In this document: positions 28,263-47,312 of the stretch, piece after piece
How positions within the stretch are numbered: the stretch's first letter is position 1
Layout: every line of letters starts with the position of its first letter
Assembly: GCA_963814135.1 (NCBI GenBank)
Contig: CAWFBZ010000013.1
Location: 41,222-105,221, forward strand
DNA length: 64,000 nt
Origin: an uncultured Chloroflexia bacterium
GTDB lineage: Bacteria; Chloroflexota; Anaerolineae; Anaerolineales; Villigracilaceae
Direction: 5' to 3'
Program-made: the position numbers and the translations under genes
The notes under the pieces: generated by a model
What the model was told of the DNA's origin: nothing
Databases searched by the model: none
Seen by the model: only the letters and a program-made list of their open reading frames with translations

Positions 28263-29451
28263 ATGCCGATCTTCCGCTTCGACGAACTGACCTGGCCTGA
28301 AATAGCCGGGCTGCCTCGGACCATCCCGCTGGTCCTGCCGGTTGGAAGTTACCCCGAGACTTTTCTTGCGGACGGGAAAGGAATGGAGACTCATACAGGG
28401 GCAGGCTGTGCTTTCATCCCAACTTGGAACGTCCCAACCGGTCGGAATTTTGCCGGCCATTCCCTTTGGATGGCCTGGCAGTGGATTGGCCGTCCCGGAG
28501 AAAATATTCCAGGCGATGCTGCGCAACCTGGTTGCCAACCTGCTGGAAGACGGATTCGGCAATATTCACGTGCTGGTACCACCGGACTTGCACCTGGACG
28601 ACGACATTCCGCAAATTAGCTGGGTGGGGGACAGCCCCGCAAAACTTACCTTTTCCCCTGCTGATGTCGAAAAGGTGCTGATCGCTCCGATCGGGCACAC
28701 CGAGCAGCATGGCTACCATTCCCCTTTGTCCACAGACACGCTGATCATCGAAGCCATCGGGGAAGGCACGGCCCGGGCTGTGCCGGATCAGGCAACCTGC
28801 CTGCCAGTCTTCCCCTACGGAGTCAGCACACACCGGCGTTCCTTCCCGGGCACCTTCAATGTTGGCGGGCGGGCCTTCGAGGATTTCTGGCTGGCGCTGG
28901 TGGACACGCTGGTGGCAGCCGGGTTCACCCGCTTTTACCTGATGAGCGGGCACGGCGGTAATTCGTCATTCCTGGTCAACGTGGTGAAATATGCCGGCGA
29001 GAAATATCCGCACATCTTCTGTGCGACCGCCTTTTTGTACCTTTCAGGGCCACAAGGGGTGGCTGCACTGGATGGCAGGCGCCAGTCAGCCCTGGGGGGA
29101 ATGGGTCACGCTTGCGAGTTGGAGACTTCGCTGGTGCTGCACTTGCGCCCGGAGTTGGTGCACATTGAAAGGGCGGTGGACGAGACAGATTTCATCACCA
29201 CCCCATCCTATTACATGGATTGGATCGAGGCGGGCGCTTTGACTGCCAATCCGCCCTGGGAAGACGACACCCGCACCGGGGCGTATGGAGCGGGCAGCCT
29301 TGGCACGGCAGAAAAGGGGGAATACTGGCTGAAAGCGGCGATCGAGGAAAAAGTGGGGCACGTGGCCGAGATCCACGAGCAATACCGCAGGAGAAGGGAA
29401 CGCAGGCAAGACGGGCGGTCGATAAAGGCTGGACTGAGCAGTCGGAATTAA
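28263..29451 (+). CDS. Creatininase-family amidohydrolase with an extra N-terminal creatininase-like half domain; frameshift at G4 run 28398-28401
   Basis: MPIFRFDELTWPEIAGLPRTIPLVLPVGS (ORF 28251..28619) joins ..QAVLSSQLG.. of ORF 28342..29451, which carries IGHTEQHGYHSPLSTD, SGHGGN, GHACELETS. Confidence 0.75.
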
Positions 29452-30548
29452 GTGCCGGCGCTGATGATCACGCGCTCCCCCAGCCCGGCCCAATCGAAAA
29501 GCCACTTTGCATCCGCGGGGGATAGATTGATGCAGCCGTGCGAGGTGGGGCTGCCAAAGGCATCGTGCCAATACGCCCCGTGAAACCCGAAGTCCCCAGC
29601 GTAGGTCATGAAGTACGGCACACCTTCGATGTAGTAATCGCTGGTGGACGTGGATGGGGGCGTGATGGAGCTGTATTCCACCTTATATAAAATGGCAAAA
29701 CGGCCCTCGAACGTCCAGGAGTTCTTGCCGGACGAGATCAAGGTGGCGAAGACCAGTTTGCAGTTGTTATACACCGACAGCGTCTGGGTTTTCAGGTTGG
29801 CGTAGATAAACCGGCAGGTGTCCGGGCCGGCTTCGGCCGGCACGGATGGGCTGACCAGCGCAAGTGCGCTCTCCGGAAGCCATTCGTCTGCTCCGATGGC
29901 GACGTATCCGGGCTTTTGGGCTGCCACCGGGACCTCATGGACCACCTGGTAGCGCTGGTAGGTCCGGACCGGCGCATCCTTCATATTGACGCTGTCAATC
30001 TCGGACAGGACCCACCCGAAGCGGAAATCAACCTGGCGGGTCAGCAGGATGCCGGTGAATTTGGAGGGCGTCAGCGGCTGCAGATCCTCCATGACCATCC
30101 AGCCATAGGTGGTGAGGGAGTAATCCTTTCCGTCGTCACCGGTCCGGGTGGTGGTGTAGGCTACGTAAGCGGGATAATCGGGCAGGTAGCCGAAATTACC
30201 GGTCTTGGCGAGGGCATCCTGGAAACTGGCATACACCCTGGCTTTGGGTTTGGTCACTTCGGCGTAATGATATTTCAGCACTCCCAAAGCCGGATCGATG
30301 GTCTGGTACCAGGCTGGTTCGGGGGTAGGCGTGAGGGTCGGTGTACTGGTGAGGGTGGCGGTGGGATTTGCCGTGGGAGTGGATGTGGGAGCAGATGTGG
30401 GAGTAGATGTGGGAACGGATGTAGGTGAAGGATGTGTAGAGGCCCCGCAAGCGGTAAGGATTAAAATGAAAAAGAGTGTTATGCCGTAGAAACGAGTGTA
30501 GTAACGACTTAAGTCGTTACTACGAATGGTAAACAAATTCTTAATCAT
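29448..30548 (-). CDS. L,D-transpeptidase (YkuD domain) lipoprotein with Thr/Pro-rich linker
   Basis: ATG 30548; ..ITLFFILILTACG lipobox; PTSTPTSAPTSTPT linker; C-terminal FHGAYWHDAFGSPTSHGCINL catalytic motif. Confidence 0.85.
   Translation of the reverse strand: MIKNLFTIRSNDLSRYYTRFYGITLFFILILTACGASTHPSPTSVPTSTPTSAPTSTPTANPTATLTSTPTLTPTPEPAWYQTIDPALGVLKYHYAEVTKPKARVYASFQDALAKTGNFGYLPDYPAYVAYTTTRTGDDGKDYSLTTYGWMVMEDLQPLTPSKFTGILLTRQVDFRFGWVLSEIDSVNMKDAPVRTYQRYQVVHEVPVAAQKPGYVAIGADEWLPESALALVSPSVPAEAGPDTCRFIYANLKTQTLSVYNNCKLVFATLISSGKNSWTFEGRFAILYKVEYSSITPPSTSTSDYYIEGVPYFMTYAGDFGFHGAYWHDAFGSPTSHGCINLSPADAKWLFDWAGLGERVIISAGT
30498..30523. repeat. REP element: perfect 26-bp palindrome GTAGTAACGACTTAAGTCGTTACTAC
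   Basis: Read directly; 18 nt downstream of the RAYT stop; lies inside codons 9-17 of the predicted L,D-transpeptidase. Confidence 0.9.
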
Positions 30549-30972
30549 CCCAACCTCGACCGAGGTCTGAAAGTGGGGGATTGGAGTTCCAATGATCTTG
30601 CCGTTTTTTTGTGAGGTCATCTTCCAGGTTCCAAAGACGGGAAGTCTTTCCATGAAGTGATTTTAGTGCAGATGATACAAAATCAAGCGATTCGACATCG
30701 ACCAATATGTGATAATGATTCATGAGTATGACCCAGGCAATGACATCTGCTTTGATAGTTTGGATTGCTTCCAGAAGTAGTAGCTCGAATTCAGTTCGCC
30801 TATTAGGAGATGCCATGACGGGCGCATGTTCAAAATTCGCCGCTGTAATCAGGTAAAAGCCTGCTTCCCGATATGGATGTGGTGGAGCGTGCAGAGGATA
30901 ACCATGTTCACGTCTGTAATGAACGATTTCTTCGCGTTCGCTGAATGTGAGTTTGAGATATTCGTAGGGCAT
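30541..30972 (-). pseudogene. REP-associated tyrosine transposase (RAYT, IS200/Y1 HUH family), apparently C-terminally truncated
   Basis: MPYEYLKLTFSEREEIVHYRREHGYPLHAPPHPYR.., HUH motif MNHYHILV, LHGKTSRLWN; no C-terminal Tyr motif before the stop; flanked by cognate REPs. Confidence 0.7.
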
Positions 30973-30987
30973 GTGCAACCCTGACTC

Positions 30988-35984: not shown

Positions 35985-36035
35985 TGATGGGATAAATAGG
36001 GGGTGTTGGGCGGGCTTTGCCCGCCCAACACCCCC
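35985..36035 (-). terminator. Strong stem-loop (17-bp stem) after the ABC-2 permease gene
   Basis: GGGGGTGTTGGGCGGGC-TTT-GCCCGCCCAACACCCCC at 35999-36035; on the minus strand followed by CUAUUUAU. Confidence 0.6.
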
Positions 36036-43126: not shown

Positions 43127-43544
43127 TCAATTCAATTTTTCTTCTGTTTCAAGCAGGTAAAGCCGTTTCCATTGCTCCACCTGCCCGGTGAAAACTTCAT
43201 CCAACAGTTCCGCCGAGACGCCCAGTCGTTCCGCATCTGCCAGGTAACGCCGGGTAAGCTCTTCGAGCGCCTGCCGGCGCAGGGTTCCGTCCACTTCGGG
43301 GGGCGGCATTTCCAGAATATACGTGCCCCGACCTTGCTGGGTGGAAATGATGCCGGATTTCATCCAGGATGCGGTAAGCCCGCGCGATCGTGTTGAAATT
43401 GACGCGCAGTTCGGCCGCCAGGGAGCGGACCGTTGGAAGCTGGTCGCCGGGTTTCAACTGCCCGGCGACCAGCAGGCTTTTGATCTGCTCGACCACCTGG
43501 AGGTAGATCGGGAGGCCGGAACGGAAGTCGATTTCAAGTTTCAT
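43127..43544 (-). CDS. GntR-family (YtrA-like) regulator, paralogue of 37803..38285; frameshift at 43358-43360
   Basis: MKLEIDFRSGLPIYLQVVEQIKSLLVAGQLKPGDQLPTVRSLAAELRVNFNTIARAYRILDE joins SGIISTQQGRGTYILE.. if one base of the A3 run (minus strand) is removed; alternative ATG at 43559. Confidence 0.82.
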
Positions 43545-43574
43545 AAGAAATTGTATCATTGTATCATTGTACTA

Positions 43575-43602
43575 ATTGTATGCGGAATTGGGGGATTGTC
43601 AA
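43575..43602 (-). promoter_or_regulatory. Promoter of the second GntR operon, followed by TACAAT-type repeats
   Basis: Minus strand TTGACA (43602-43597), 16 nt, TACAAT (43580-43575), then TAGTACAATGATACAATGATACAAT down to the start codon. Confidence 0.6.
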
Positions 43603-43699
43603 GAGGTAGGGACAAATTTAGCGCATTTTTTCCGGGCTGGATTTGAGGAGTTCAATCCTAAATTTCGCCGGCTTTCGTCATCACCTTATAAGAGACCTG

Positions 43700-43858
43700 C
43701 TAAGGTTTGGTAAAATGTTTTTCCGCATAGCAAAATTGGCGCATCTCATCCAGACGAAACTCTTCCGGATTGGTCGCATCCCTGGTTTCGCGCACCAGGT
43801 AAAGAATCTCTTCGCCGCTTGATTTCTCTATCTCGCGCAGGTTATGTGTGAGGTTGAC
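43700..43858 (-). pseudogene. Orphan 52-codon frame resembling the C-terminal nuclease end of a Type III restriction Res-like protein
   Basis: VNLTHNLREIEKSSGEEILYLVRETRDATNPEEFRLDEMRQFCYAEKHFTKP*; pattern ..LY.V.ET+....LR..E..+..CA.KHF is typical of Res C-termini; no start codon. Confidence 0.4.
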
Positions 43859-43905
43859 TTACTTCAAGTCAAAGCGGTTGGCGATGTCGGCAAATCTCGT
43901 ACCAT

Positions 43906-44059
43906 GTAGACGTAATTCAGATCGTAAACGCAATTTGGTCCATAGACGCATTTCGGGATGTAGACGTATTTTGGGTTGTAAACGCATTTTGGCCCGTAGA
44001 CGCATTTTGGCCCGTAGAAGCATTTTGGCCCGTAGAAGCATTTCATGAAATGCTTCTAC
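43906..44059. repeat. Seven 18-bp tandem units (GTAGACGCATTTTGGCCC-like) ending in the 28-bp palindrome GTAGAAGCATTTCATGAAATGCTTCTAC
   Basis: Exact 18-bp register from 43906; units grow more similar toward the palindrome at 44032-44059, which ends 28 nt downstream of the RAYT stop. Confidence 0.95.
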
Positions 44060-44087
44060 GGGTTTGCGTCGAATTTGAATTGCACGA

Positions 44088-44732
44088 TTACCGGTTCTCT
44101 TTGTCTTTGTTCCACGAAGTTGGATTGGAACGGATATATTGACGGATGGAATTGTAAGCCGGCCCATTGCGAACGATACGTTCGTAGTAATTCCGTTGCC
44201 AGATTGGAACCCCGGAACTATTTAGAAGAATGTTGATGCGCTTGGCAGAATTCATCTTGAAATAACCCATTACGAGGGGGAGTAGCATCTTGCGGCGGGC
44301 AAGGCGATAGGATTCTTTGTCAGGTTGTTTCGGCAATTCATCCCAAGGCGGCGGCAATTCATCCCAAGGCGGCGGGAATTCATCCCAGGGCGGCGGCAAT
44401 TCATCCCAGGGCGGCGGCAATTCATGAATTGCCGCTTCACCCGCTTCATCCACGGGATTCTCTTCGATTACCACAATCCCATGAAAATGATTGGGCATGA
44501 CCACTGCCTCGTCGAGAGAAATATTGGGATAGCGTGAAGGGAGGGATTGCCAGATTTCCCAGACAATCTTCCCAGCGACATTTTTATGCATTTCGCCATC
44601 TTTAATCTCTCCAAAAAGGTGCTCACGTTGGAATGTGACCATCGTGACGAAATATGCGCCGGGCCGGGAATAATCATAGTCCGGCAAACGAAGGGAGCGG
44701 CGGGAGAAATTTGGCGGATTGTTATAGGGCAT
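44088..44732 (-). CDS. REP-associated tyrosine transposase (RAYT, IS200/Y1 HUH family), apparently intact
   Basis: MPYNNPPNFSRRSLRLPDYDYSRPGAYFVT.., HUH motif MPNHFHGIV, Tyr motif IWQRNYYERIVRN..IRQYIRSNP; heptad repeat ELPPPWD inserted between the motifs. Confidence 0.85.
   Translation of the reverse strand: MPYNNPPNFSRRSLRLPDYDYSRPGAYFVTMVTFQREHLFGEIKDGEMHKNVAGKIVWEIWQSLPSRYPNISLDEAVVMPNHFHGIVVIEENPVDEAGEAAIHELPPPWDELPPPWDEFPPPWDELPPPWDELPKQPDKESYRLARRKMLLPLVMGYFKMNSAKRINILLNSSGVPIWQRNYYERIVRNGPAYNSIRQYIRSNPTSWNKDKENR
44332..44433. repeat. Four 21-bp tandem units plus terminal 18-bp palindrome GGCAATTCATGAATTGCC inside the RAYT gene
   Basis: Units at 44332, 44353, 44374, 44395 (GGCAATTCATCCCAAGGCGGC-like); palindrome 44416-44433; in frame, encoding (ELPPPWD)n on the minus strand. 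Confidence 0.95.
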
Positions 44733-45534
44733 TTCTAGCTCGTTTTTAGTCAGCAATGCTTCCCGGGACACGAGCCTGGCATTTGAGCAGCCCGATTACC
44801 GCTTCGATGGACTGAAGTGAATTCCGCTCCAATCCATTGCTTGTAATTTGTGGTCGCCGGCTAGAAGACCTTGAAGCCCAGGTCTTCAGGCTGGTCGAGA
44901 GTTAACTGGTTCTGGCGTTCTTTCTTCACATAGGTTAGGACGCGGCGGAGTTCCTTGTCGCTCTCGGCGATAAAATTGGTTCCAGCCTTTTTATAGTATA
45001 CCTAATTTCTTCTGCCCCGGGTTCCAATGCCCGGGGATTTTTTATCCGATTGGAATAGAATTCCCCCGGCAGTCATATGAATGCGCATCCGTTCGGCCCA
45101 GCCAGACGAACGGACTTCCCCGAAAAAAGAACCCCTTGACATTCCAGAACATATGTACTATTTTAATGGGCTCTCATCCTCTTATTATGTAACCGATTAA
45201 CAAAATGAACCTATCCATCGCGCTCTCCCCTCTTCCTTCTTTCCCCCGCCTGGCAAACCGTGCAGTCCTCATCCCACGGTCGAAGTATTCGTTTTTTTCC
45301 GTTTCTAAAAAAAGTGTATTTAATTCCCCTCCCCCAAAAAATTCTTCGGAGAATATCCGTTCATCATTCGTTTTTTTTGGGGGAACGAATACCTGCCCTT
45401 CCCGAAGGAATGTCCTCGAAAATCAGCCCATCGCCAGAACCCTTTCGCGTCGCTATTCCTCCGGCTCTTCAAATTACGAATTACTAATACCCCTTCCCGG
45501 ATTTTTCCCTGTTCTCCACTCTTTTCCTAATGAG

Positions 45535-47003
45535 TTACGCCTGCAGCCGTCTGATCGCCTTCCCCAACCTTTTAATTCCCGTCTCGATCTCGCCCTCCGG
45601 CTGGGCCACGAAATTGAGCCGCATCCGGTCGCGACCCTGGCTACCTTCGGTAAAAAACAGGCTGCCCGGCGCAAAGGCCACGCCTTCTTCACACGCCAGG
45701 GGCAGCAGTTCATCGGACGAAAGTCCTTCCGGCAGGCGCAGCCACAGGAACAATCCGCCCTGGGGCGGGTCCACCGAAATCCCGGAGGGCAGGCTGCGCT
45801 GGATGGCCGCCAGCATGGCCTCCCGGCGCTTGCGGAAGATCTGGCACGAGCGGCGCAGGTAAGCCTGGTAGCGCCCAACGGTTACGTAGGCCTCCAGCGC
45901 CCTTTGGATCAAAGTGGAGGTGGCCAGGTCGCTCAGGCGTTTGAATCCCAGCAGGCTTTCGTAAACCGGACCGTCCGCCACCAGGAAGCCCACCCGCAGG
46001 CCCGGCATCAACATCTTGGAAAAGGTGCTGACGTGCAGTACCCGCCCGCCCGGGTCGAGCGCTTTGAGCGAAGGTTGCGTTCGCCCATCATAGCGCAGGT
46101 CGCCGACGAAATCGTCTTCCAGGATCGGGACGTTGTAGCGGTCTGCCAGGACGATCAACTGGCGCCGGCGGGCGCTGCTCAGGCAGGTGCCGGTGGGATT
46201 ATGGAAATTCGGGATGGTGTAGATCAATTTGGGGTGGTGCTGCTGCAGCAACTGCTCCAGTTTATCCACCTGCATGCCCTGGTCGTCCATGGGAATGCCG
46301 ACGATCCGGAAGCCGCAGCGAGCGGAACAACTCCATCGCGGTGGAATAGGTCGGGCTCTCGACCAGGATGACGTCCCCGGGCTTGAGCAGCACCTGGCTG
46401 ATCAACGAAATGGCCTGCTGCGATCCGGCCGTGATCAGGATATTGTCGGCCCGCGTCTGCAGTCCCTGGCTGGCCAGGATGTGGGCGATGCTCTCGCGCA
46501 GGGGCGCGTACCCGCTGCGCTCGCCGTAATCCATGCTCTCGATCCCGTCCCGGCGCATGACGGCCTGGATGGTCTTGCGGAATTCGTCGGCCGGGAACTG
46601 GCGCGTATCGGTGATGCCGCTGGCGAAACTGATCGGGTCCGCGTGCCCGGCGTTTTTAAGCATCTGCTCGGGATTGGCAGCCCGGGAGACGCTGTTCTGG
46701 GCCCGGACATCCTGTTGCCATAAGGGCCAGGCGTGCGGGCTGGTTTTGGGAACCTGGGGCAGTGGGTTGGACGGCAGGACGTAGGTGCCGCTGCCGACCC
46801 GCGAAGACCAGCCCGTCCGCCTCCAGTTCGGAATAGGCGTTCTCCACCGTGATGCGGTTGACCCCCAGGTCACGCGCAAGCTCCCGGCTGGCAGGCAGGC
46901 GGGTATCGGGGACCAGGCTGCCGGAAAGGATGCCCTGGCGCAAATGGGTCCGGATCTGTTGATATAAAGGTTGGTTACTTTGACGGTCCAGCGGAATACG
47001 CAT
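45535..47003 (-). CDS. pdxR: MocR/PdxR-type regulator (GntR HTH + class-I aminotransferase-like domain); two frameshifts (about 46805 and 46312)
   Basis: HTH MRIPLDRQSNQPLYQQIRTHLRQGILSGSLVPDTRLPASRELARDLGVNRITVENAYSELEADGLV, then SRVGSGTYV.., then ..FRIVGIPMDDQGM..NFHNPTG..STFSKMLMPGLRVGF.. in three frames; divergent from pdxS. Confidence 0.8.
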
Positions 47004-47016
47004 GTTCCACCTCGCT

Positions 47017-47115
47017 TTGGATTGGTGTGGTTAAATATATCATCCAAATCGTTCCGATAATAGAGCCAATCCGCTTTTATCGAGGCCAATCCATTTAATT
47101 GGACTGGTGTTGGTT
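47017..47115. promoter_or_regulatory. Candidate PdxR operator repeats in the pdxR-pdxS intergenic region
   Basis: TTGGATTGGTGTGGTT (47017-47032) and TTGGACTGGTGTTGGTT (47099-47115) direct; two inverted CCAATCC copies at 47066-47072 and 47086-47092 (20-bp spacing). Confidence 0.4.
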
Positions 47116-47312
47116 TTAATTTATTGGCTCTTAACATATACCAATAATCATCTAGAATCAAGCTTGCAGGAAGACCCTCTGTTTCCTGTCCGTGTTCATC
47201 CAATTTTTTAGACTGCGGCGAACTTTAGGATTGGCTTATAACGATCTGGCCGCGCCGCCCGGCGGGAGACCGCCGTGGTAGAATCAGAACCACTATTGAT
47301 CAGGAGATAATT

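Follow-up and report, generated by a model that had tools for sequence, protein, structure and literature searches.

The 64-kb window considered here (the whole stretch of DNA that was analysed, from contig CAWFBZ010000013.1 of an uncultured Chloroflexia bacterium) contains a gene for a REP-associated tyrosine transposase (RAYT), an enzyme of the HUH/Y1 type named after the repetitive extragenic palindromes (REPs) with which such genes are associated. Two perfect palindromes lie at this locus, one inside the RAYT gene and one just beyond its 3' end, and each is followed by a tandem array in which only one palindrome arm is repeated. This raises the question of how a single arm can be multiplied beside an intact copy of the whole, and of whether the RAYT takes part in the process. 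The locus was found to be a REPtron of the subclass 2.4 / RAYT group 4 kind, with its cognate double-foot REPs in frame in coding sequence, and the arrays were found to be tandem duplications of one palindrome arm with a few flanking bases. We infer that these duplications probably began with a hairpin-driven stutter of replication, followed by slippage or unequal exchange.

The palindrome beyond the gene, GTAGAAGCATTTCATGAAATGCTTCTAC (GTAG...CTAC), is 28 nt long and is located at 44032-44059, with 28 nt separating it from the RAYT stop codon. When its CCC/GGG flanks were included, folding of the resulting 34 nt as single-stranded DNA gave -15.9 kcal/mol (z = -11.4). Tandem Repeats Finder (TRF) identified an 18-bp period beside it at 43923-44043 (6.7 copies, 82% matches), with a 54-bp period scoring higher over the same stretch. 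The arms of the seven units differ from the palindrome arm at 3, 3, 2, 2, 2, 1 and 0 positions, counted from the distal to the proximal unit. By chance, 0.36 occurrences of the arm motif would be expected against seven observed, and 0.10 occurrences of the core pattern against two observed.

The variants among these units record part of the history of the array. AATT is kept in the two distal units and GCGTCTAC in most of the older units, and the same states are seen in the REPs that relatives carry in a type III restriction gene (res), namely AATTGCATCTAC (L082) and AACTGCGTCTAC (L207). The nearest unit has the derived bases AAAT and GCTTC/GAAGC in common with the two arms of the palindrome as it now stands. 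It was therefore the proximal unit in which the last duplication, or else a conversion, took place, after a compensated change in the two arms. Private variants are common to units 1/4 and 2/5 (CGTA; GTAAAC), with units 3/6 differing at a single arm position. Together with the 54-bp period, the variants common to 1/4 and 2/5 indicate that at least one block of three units was duplicated, as in ordinary tandem-repeat evolution, and this period points to slippage or unequal exchange over the strict addition of one unit at a time. Folding predicted that the lone opposite arm is able to pair with distal copies, a path by which units could be deleted, added or homogenised.

The intragenic palindrome, GCGGCAATTCATGAATTGCCGC, has lost the GTAG/CTAC feet, and its DNA fold was calculated at -10.3 kcal/mol (z = -4.9); relatives carry GTAGGGGCAATTCATGAATTGCCCCTAC at the homologous position. 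It terminates a 21-bp array whose unit is ATGAATTGCCG, the right arm as read along the gene, with 10 nt added, and which is translated in frame to ELPPPWD heptads within a predicted disordered loop. Among relatives, the DNA linking the HUH and Tyr motifs holds a palindrome in 58 loci, mostly a GTAG-tagged double-foot one, of which the 28-nt GTAGGGGC....GCCCCTAC is typical. This palindrome is read in all three reading frames across relatives, examples being VGAIHELPL (GTA GGG GCA ATT CAT GAA TTG CCC CTA C) and RRGDSRIAPT, for which a different REP is translated in another frame. It is therefore the DNA element that is conserved and not the peptide. Within the clade of the window RAYT, the AIHELP motif is near-invariant.

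An earlier note on this DNA, made from the sequence alone, had described an intact HUH/Y1 RAYT gene, a palindrome 28 nt past its stop, seven 18-bp units whose divergence rises away from that palindrome, and an internal in-frame 21-bp array of ELPPPWD heptads ending in a related palindrome. All of these were upheld, the unit numbers by TRF and the gene by its motifs, fold and homologues, and the two palindromes proved to belong to one family that is linked to RAYTs in relatives. The note had also described the arrays as left-arm repeats. The positions on which this was based are correct, but the gene and arrays lie on the minus strand, so that in gene orientation it is the right arm that is repeated, with both arrays located 3' of their palindromes. 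Nor is a palindrome with in-frame repeats inside the gene peculiar to this locus: an intragenic in-frame REP with short repeats is a published hallmark of subclass 2.4 (PMC6006769).

Examination of other genomes, unrelated ones included, showed that amplification of one arm beside an intact palindrome recurs. TRF was applied without bias to 1.94 Mb of fetched loci and its results were intersected with all strong palindromes, yielding 24 tandem repeats (period 9-60) that overlap one side of a REP-like perfect palindrome. In 20 of these 24, the array ends at most 3 nt from the palindrome centre, the others ending at -6, -6, +6 and +17, whereas a uniform distribution over the approximately 35 possible end positions would place only about 20% of ends that close. 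Such inner ends at the centre suggest a structure-dependent process. Most units were found to consist of one arm (14 nt) and a further 0-7 nt, and both ends of the unit are therefore set by the hairpin, one by its tip and the other by its foot. Periods of intragenic arrays are all multiples of three (15, 18, 21, 36, 45) and those of extragenic arrays are not (13, 14, 16, 19), a rule that fits random production followed by selection for the reading frame.

Copies of the left arm lie to the left of the palindrome and copies of the right arm to its right. Arrays inside RAYT genes are found to the right of the palindrome in five cases and to its left in four, and there is thus no fixed polarity with respect to the gene, so that the common polarity of the two window arrays is not a rule among relatives. 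Arrays within a locus agreed in side in five of six comparisons, which is not significant, and GC skew across the window was flat and gave no replication direction to which the side of the arrays could be related. In addition to the CATG of the window, arrays occur at REPs with GGCC, CGCG and CACG centres, and a search for a cleavage dinucleotide (C/A or C/T) common to the unit junctions found none that all arrays share.

Microcystis novacekii (L010) has a run of nine 14-bp GTAGGGATAATTCC units that closes with GTAGGGATAATTCATGAATTATCCCTAC and lies outside RAYT genes; approximately 400 bp away GTAGGGATAATTCATGAATTATCCCTAC occurs a second time, there with a related array of arm repeats whose period is 48 bp. 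A metagenome-assembled genome (MAG) of Anaerolineaceae (L011) has a 21-bp array of 5.8 copies after a REP situated 2.5 kb from its RAYT, as well as two 15-bp arrays after two REPs within the RAYT. The arrays of these two genomes have no divergence gradient. A Nostoc locus (L052) carries an array of 36 bp in 4.2 copies, further one-arm arrays were found in L012, L211, L207, L209, L081 and L120, and traces are visible at the protein level as HELPLRD, ELPLR, HELPQ and VAAIH repeats. Around dispersed REPs, an automatic count gave half-sites at 8 of 80 loci, a figure that includes duplicate contigs and two doubtful cases and leaves about four that are distinct and convincing. Two further structures were observed in these genomes. 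At 8950-9680 of L010 there are two copies of a segment of some 400 bp, both ending in arm repeats and a full palindrome, with an internal structure of 14 bp x9 in one and 48 bp x2.5 in the other. At 14117-14517 of L011 there is an unrelated hairpin repeat, TCCCCCCCATTTTTGCAACCCAAAATGGGGGGGA, and behind one copy of it whole imperfect hairpins form a 40-bp x3.7 array.

The open reading frame (ORF) of the window RAYT spans 44088-44771 on the minus strand, its likely start being the ATG at 44732 and its stop codon lying at 44088-44090. Upstream of this start the frame is open as far as a GTG at 44771, across a relic of the C-terminus of a type III methyltransferase (mod) whose stop codon has been lost (44733-44771). 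The HUH motif NHFH is found at residues 81-84, the WQ motif at W178-Q179 and the catalytic tyrosine motif, YIRSNP, from Y199; this last is the class motif YIxNNP with S replacing the first N. All residues invariant among 27 relatives are retained, including NHFH, WQ, Y199, I200 and N203 (alignment A1). A total of 2626 homologues were found at E ≤ 0.001, mainly among Anaerolineae and other Chloroflexota, and also among Cyanobacteria, Planctomycetota and others. The AlphaFold model has a core with pLDDT (predicted local distance difference test) values above 90, for which the best Foldseek matches were ISDra2 TnpA, Escherichia coli TnpAREP (4ER8), IS608 and IS200, each with a probability of 1.00; the profile match to 4ER8 was weak (E = 0.004).

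The protein missed the cut-offs of Pfam Y1_Tnp (17.1 versus 23 bits) and of the NCBIfam equivalog REP_Tyr_transpos (47.8 versus 80 bits) because an insertion splits the domain and only the C-terminal half is aligned, and its class membership is therefore based on motifs, fold and homologues. No PADLOC model matched the RAYT, a plasmid search returned only distant matches without informative context, and no other assembly or strain of the contig is on record, the protein forming a singleton cluster. Residues 94-133, which comprise AIHELP and the heptads, were modelled with pLDDT below 50 and without secondary structure. The distance from HuH to Tyr is 115 amino acids, or 87 when the four heptads are subtracted. 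Given the confident core and the position of the repeats in a low-confidence loop, the RAYT gene looks intact, with its repeats in a tolerant part of the protein.

Subclass 2.4 (Quentin et al. 2018, PMC6006769) is equivalent to group 4 of the RAYTs as defined by Bertels et al. (2017, PMC5581495). Its proteins are of approximately 190 amino acids with the motifs NH[IFV]H, WQ and YIxNNP and a median HuH-to-Tyr distance of 88, their beta3-alphaC insertion varies in length and was found with MEME to contain short DNA repeats, and their double-foot REPs (5' GT[AG]G, 3' C[TC]AC) lie in frame in tnpA between HuH and Y (PMC6006769). Five features of the subclass were found here, namely NH[IFV]H, WQ with the Tyr motif, the Y1 fold, a variable insertion with an in-frame REP and repeats, and an adjacent double-foot REP. 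The gene is thus a TnpA(Y1) of subclass 2.4 / RAYT group 4.

The closest clade of the window RAYT is nested in type III mod/res operons, a setting for which no description was found in the literature searched. The order mod-RAYT-res, with gaps of 3-11 bp, is indicated jointly by independent contigs from the closest homologues with DNA (L082-L085, L207/L208, L209, L210, L211 and the Anaerolineales MAG L002). All three genes are visible in L082 (765-5922), L207, L209 and L002 (8062-13206); L210 begins at the RAYT and displays RAYT-res only, and L211 was read from the translated ends of its flanking ORFs. A Methylomarinum genome (L020, 9983-16249) has the order RAYT-mod-res. The flanking proteins of L082 matched the PADLOC models of type III methyltransferase (561 bits) and type III restriction endonuclease (824 bits), with which their Pfam domains agree, and the mod and res genes of relatives are intact. 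Double-foot REPs of these relatives lie in frame in the C-terminal region of mod (..VAAVHELPLHR..) and, always at one position, in the N-terminus of res (..GQPRVDAIHELHLRGAGFAAVANRLDL..), the latter being an empty site in L002 (..GQPRIQTDLRFTFGFAAIANRLDL..). In the res N-terminus of L211 (~985-1040) a nested palindrome was observed, GTAGAT-GTAGTAGGGAAAGTTCATGAACTTCCCCTACTAC-ATCTAC, in which another REP core lies within the feet of the ancestral res REP.

At the window locus neither mod nor res is intact, a stop codon and large deletions being present, and of mod only residues 469-519 of 638 can be recognised. The res start codon and eight conserved codons lie at 44085-44062, directly after the RAYT stop, and a deletion of about 57 nt then brings GTAGAAGCATTTCATGAAATGCTTCTAC adjacent. 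The 18-bp array is situated between the right arm of GTAGAAGCATTTCATGAAATGCTTCTAC and the original res flank, and its length of 7 x 18 bp preserves the old reading frame of the palindrome (VEAFHEMLLR...). Beyond the array res homology returns (GTRFADIANRFDLK followed by a stop, against GAGFAAVANRLDLDE), broken by a TAA nonsense codon at 43859-43861 and by a large deletion that removes the internal residues ~70-837, and the C-terminal endonuclease end is found at 43834-43661; the recognisable residues are thus 1-8, ~28-70 and 838-895. By this alignment and the translations, the 3' palindrome is not simply extragenic but is the orthologue of the in-frame REP of the res N-terminus and a relic of it. 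A minus-strand ORF at 43864-44046 (GPKCFY repeats) was considered as a repeat peptide and rejected, as the repeat contains no stops and leaves every frame open, and as this stretch is alignable with the N-terminus of res. A low-GC island (43600-45400) holds the RAYT together with the relics of mod and res, with a GC content of 45-51% against approximately 57% in the surroundings, which is consistent with horizontal acquisition.

Both window palindromes are single-copy in the 64 kb, with up to 3 mismatches allowed. Metagenomes carry the wider family, GTAGANGCAWTTCATGAAWTGCNTCTAC, dispersed over at least 120 stretches, and 76 of the 80 loci listed are without a RAYT nearby. The palindrome matches listed are mostly of a different variant (GTAGAGGC...), the absence of the exact window variant among these 80 loci being uninformative. 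The window palindromes do not have the extragenic location of classical REPs, one lying in the RAYT ORF and the other in the former res frame. Nor do the window arrays have the arrangement of bacterial interspersed mosaic elements (BIMEs), where whole REPs alternate in orientation with a regular spacing, as they are direct one-arm repeats with no inverted partner.

Hairpin-associated replication slippage has reportedly been reproduced in vitro by Canceill, Viguera and Ehrlich (ref. 35 of PMC2817692). It resembles the process favoured here in the pausing or dissociation of the polymerase at hairpins, the re-pairing of the nascent 3' end and the expansion or contraction of tandem units, but the classical system gives deletions between direct repeats that flank the hairpin. 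We know of no description of centre-anchored, arm-length duplications produced by hairpin slippage. In the stutter that we regard as the probable origin of the arrays, a polymerase would copy one arm as far as the palindrome centre, at which point the hairpin could re-form and eject the nascent arm, a step possible only before the centre is passed. The ejected 3' end would then re-pair at the hairpin foot and the arm would be copied again, which would give units spanning from the centre to just beyond the foot. From two copies onwards, ordinary slippage and unequal exchange would make the array longer or shorter, proximal units would be kept palindrome-like because the one opposite arm could pair with any of the copies in turn, and inside genes only periods divisible by three would survive.

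Several points weigh against this proposal. Clear microhomology was not found at the junctions, and simple slippage leaves the first duplication unexplained. Classical polymerase pausing takes place at the base of a hairpin and not at its centre, and the ejection step is a construction of our own. With regard to the array set, 11 of the 24 palindromes were called REP-like by eye and 13 by automatic filtering for GTAG/CTAC, and RAYT neighbourhoods are over-represented among the loci sampled. Among arrays at non-REP hairpins, one of six ended as close to the centre, a control that is small and in which stem length and perfection were unmatched.

The same inner ends could also be left by cleavage. 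The RAYT, or a hairpin-tip nuclease such as SbcCD, would nick the centre of an extruded REP, the 3' OH would be extended over the arm and its flank, and the displaced 5' end would be re-ligated, one arm-plus-spacer unit being added per event. The clustering of the inner ends at the centre, which would be the single-stranded hairpin tip, agrees with this, as does the presence of a nearest unit identical to the present arm and of distal units with the ancestral AATT and GCGTCTAC, which is what proximal addition predicts. HUH enzymes leave a 3' OH that is able to prime, TnpAREP cleaves and strand-transfers single-stranded REP DNA, and the central CATG holds a C/A step, the dinucleotide cut by one characterised RAYT (PMC8266576). 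However, characterised RAYTs are guided by GTAG to cut at CT/CA 5' or 3' of the hairpin and not in the loop (PMC8266576), the GGCC, CGCG and CACG centres leave no common cleavage dinucleotide, and the window junctions are at odds with joining at C/A. The constant unit length of each array and the 54-bp block period favour slippage, and the gradient expected of proximal addition is absent from the L010 and L011 arrays. Nicking and copying at the centre is thus regarded as unlikely. The earlier note had suggested a nick-and-copy or hairpin-primed slippage process linked to the RAYT. The 54-bp period indicates that at least some growth took place by block duplication and not by the serial nicking and copying of single units, and the RAYT is not supported as the maker of the arrays. 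A bolder form of this idea, which we hold to be less likely still, is that double-foot REPs are active sites of RAYT-catalysed or RAYT-dependent hairpin-tip copying at one arm per event, that the arrays are time-ordered records of their REPs, and that the RAYT with its REPs is an integral in-frame passenger of type III operons that could diversify or regulate mod and res.

The remaining alternatives do not involve structure-dependent copying. The repeats might be selected as functional elements, either as half-site iterons for the RAYT or a regulator or, in the form of ELPPPWD peptides, for a role in the protein, and the occurrence of arrays in several phyla, always in frame when inside genes, and the near-invariance of AIHELP would be in keeping with this. 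It is nevertheless very unlikely, as the sequence, length, number and side of the units vary among close relatives, the peptide repeats fall in a predicted disordered loop, the use of three reading frames indicates that DNA and not peptide is kept, the 18-bp array is decaying in a pseudogene, and RAYTs bind folded hairpins and not single arms (PMC8266576). Head-to-tail REP dimers and REP clusters have been described for GTAG REPs (PMC3733652), and the res gene of L211 has a REP nested in a REP, so that the arrays could be imagined as remnants of serial whole-REP insertions from each of which one arm was lost. A complete REP of 28 nt is longer than the periods of 14-21 bp, traces of the opposite arm are absent from the array units, and an identical loss would be needed in each unit, which makes this origin highly improbable. 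Finally, the contig is metagenome-assembled and a second assembly of the same strain was not found, so that unit numbers could be wrong or the arrays mis-assembled. Collapse or expansion by an assembler would be unlikely for arrays of 126 and 95 bp, which fit within one typical short read, and for 18-bp units that are mutually distinct. As the reading frame is preserved and the same architecture is seen in independent assemblies from different projects, an artefact is scarcely to be credited.

The locus resembles several known systems and differs from each in some respects. Subclass 2.4 as published (PMC6006769) has in common with the window locus its motifs (with one substitution in the Tyr motif here), the insertion, the double-foot in-frame REP and the short repeats, as well as a scattered distribution over phyla that include Cyanobacteria and Chloroflexi-like lineages. 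It differs in that no statement was found there of the repeats being single REP arms anchored at the centre or of arrays outside the RAYT, and no mention of a RAYT between type III mod and res with in-frame REPs; none of these was found elsewhere in the literature searched. With E. coli TnpAREP and its REPs and BIMEs (4ER8; Corneloup et al. 2021, PMC8266576) the locus shares the HUH/Y1 fold, GTAG at the hairpin foot and a gene flanked by cognate REPs. The E. coli REPs are imperfect, single-foot and extragenic and occur in hundreds of copies as whole hairpins of alternating orientation, whereas the window palindromes are perfect, double-foot and intragenic, occur once each in the 64 kb and have one-arm arrays, the similarity to 4ER8 being marginal. 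IS200/IS605 elements (IS608 and ISDra2 TnpA) are alike in fold and in the logic of single-strand hairpin recognition, but the window gene is without insertion sequence ends, is not evidently mobile, lies in an operon and has WQ and YIxxNP motifs of the RAYT type. REPINs (Bertels and Rainey 2011, PMC3116915) are likewise palindromic repeats tied to a single-copy RAYT, and a double-foot REP may be viewed as an inverted doublet of REPs that has collapsed, as remarked in PMC6006769. REPINs, however, consist of two whole inverted REPs that replicate as a unit, unlike the direct half-REP repeats of the window.

How REPs multiply and what role RAYTs have in their hosts are still unsettled. In one-arm arrays that stop at the centre, nature would have recorded a copying error or reaction that depends on the structure of REP hairpins, and a comparison of arm duplications at REPs with and without a RAYT could serve as a read-out that tells copying initiated by an enzyme from a stutter of replication. 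That a RAYT is nested between mod and res, and that all three genes tolerate in-frame REPs, could bear on the persistence of single-copy RAYTs. Should slippage alone have produced the arrays, they would add only a small point to the 2018 account of subclass 2.4. The coordinates of the features of the locus are collected in Table 1.

Table 1. Features identified at the RAYT locus, with their positions in the 64-kb window and the analyses on which each is based.
Feature	Positions	Strand	Basis
Intact RAYT / TnpA(Y1) subclass 2.4 gene (P0001), 214 aa	44088..44732	minus	ORF, homologues, alignment A1, AlphaFold, Foldseek
Double-foot REP palindrome CCC-GTAGAAGCATTTCATGAAATGCTTCTAC-GGG, perfect, 34 nt	44029..44062	.	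sequence, folding, alignment A2, translations
One-arm array, 18 bp x7 (arm + GGGCCA/TGGCCC), 54-bp higher-order period	43906..44031	minus	TRF, distance matrix, flank homology
Intragenic REP-derived perfect palindrome GCGGCAATTCATGAATTGCCGC, encodes AAIHELP	44414..44435	.	sequence, folding
In-frame 21-bp tandem array, 4.5 copies	44331..44425	minus	TRF, 95% matches
Type III restriction (res) relic	43661..44085	minus	tblastn, alignment A2, translations
Type III methyltransferase (mod) relic	44822..44971	minus	tblastn, typing of the L082 protein

A second Y1/HUH gene was identified in the window at 30541-30978 on the minus strand (motif NHYH; Pfam Y1_Tnp, 23.3 bits), which appears to be truncated or frameshifted before the Tyr motif. 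A double-foot palindrome, GTAGTAACGACTTAAGTCGTTACTAC (30498-30523), is situated 18 nt past this gene, in the 5' coding part of an ORF for a YkuD L,D-transpeptidase (29448-30653). The PTS-rich linker of this YkuD lipoprotein is encoded by a 12/24-bp tandem repeat (GTGGGAGCAGAT x4.2) at 30373-30422, 75 nt from the palindrome at 30498.

Closer to the RAYT, ATTGTATC is repeated 3.9 times at 43550-43581, at the 5' end of and just upstream of the ORF of a GntR-family regulator (43197-43559, minus strand), and these copies may be operator repeats. Two overlapping minus-strand ORFs in different frames, at 45535-46290 and 46262-47203, each match a part of a class I/II aminotransferase domain, one the N-terminal and the other the C-terminal part, and may represent a frameshifted gene or a sequencing error. 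A GC-rich hairpin with a 17-bp stem, GGGGGTGTTGGGCGGGCTTTGCCCGCCCAACACCCCC, lies outside the REP family at 35999-36035 and may be a terminator.

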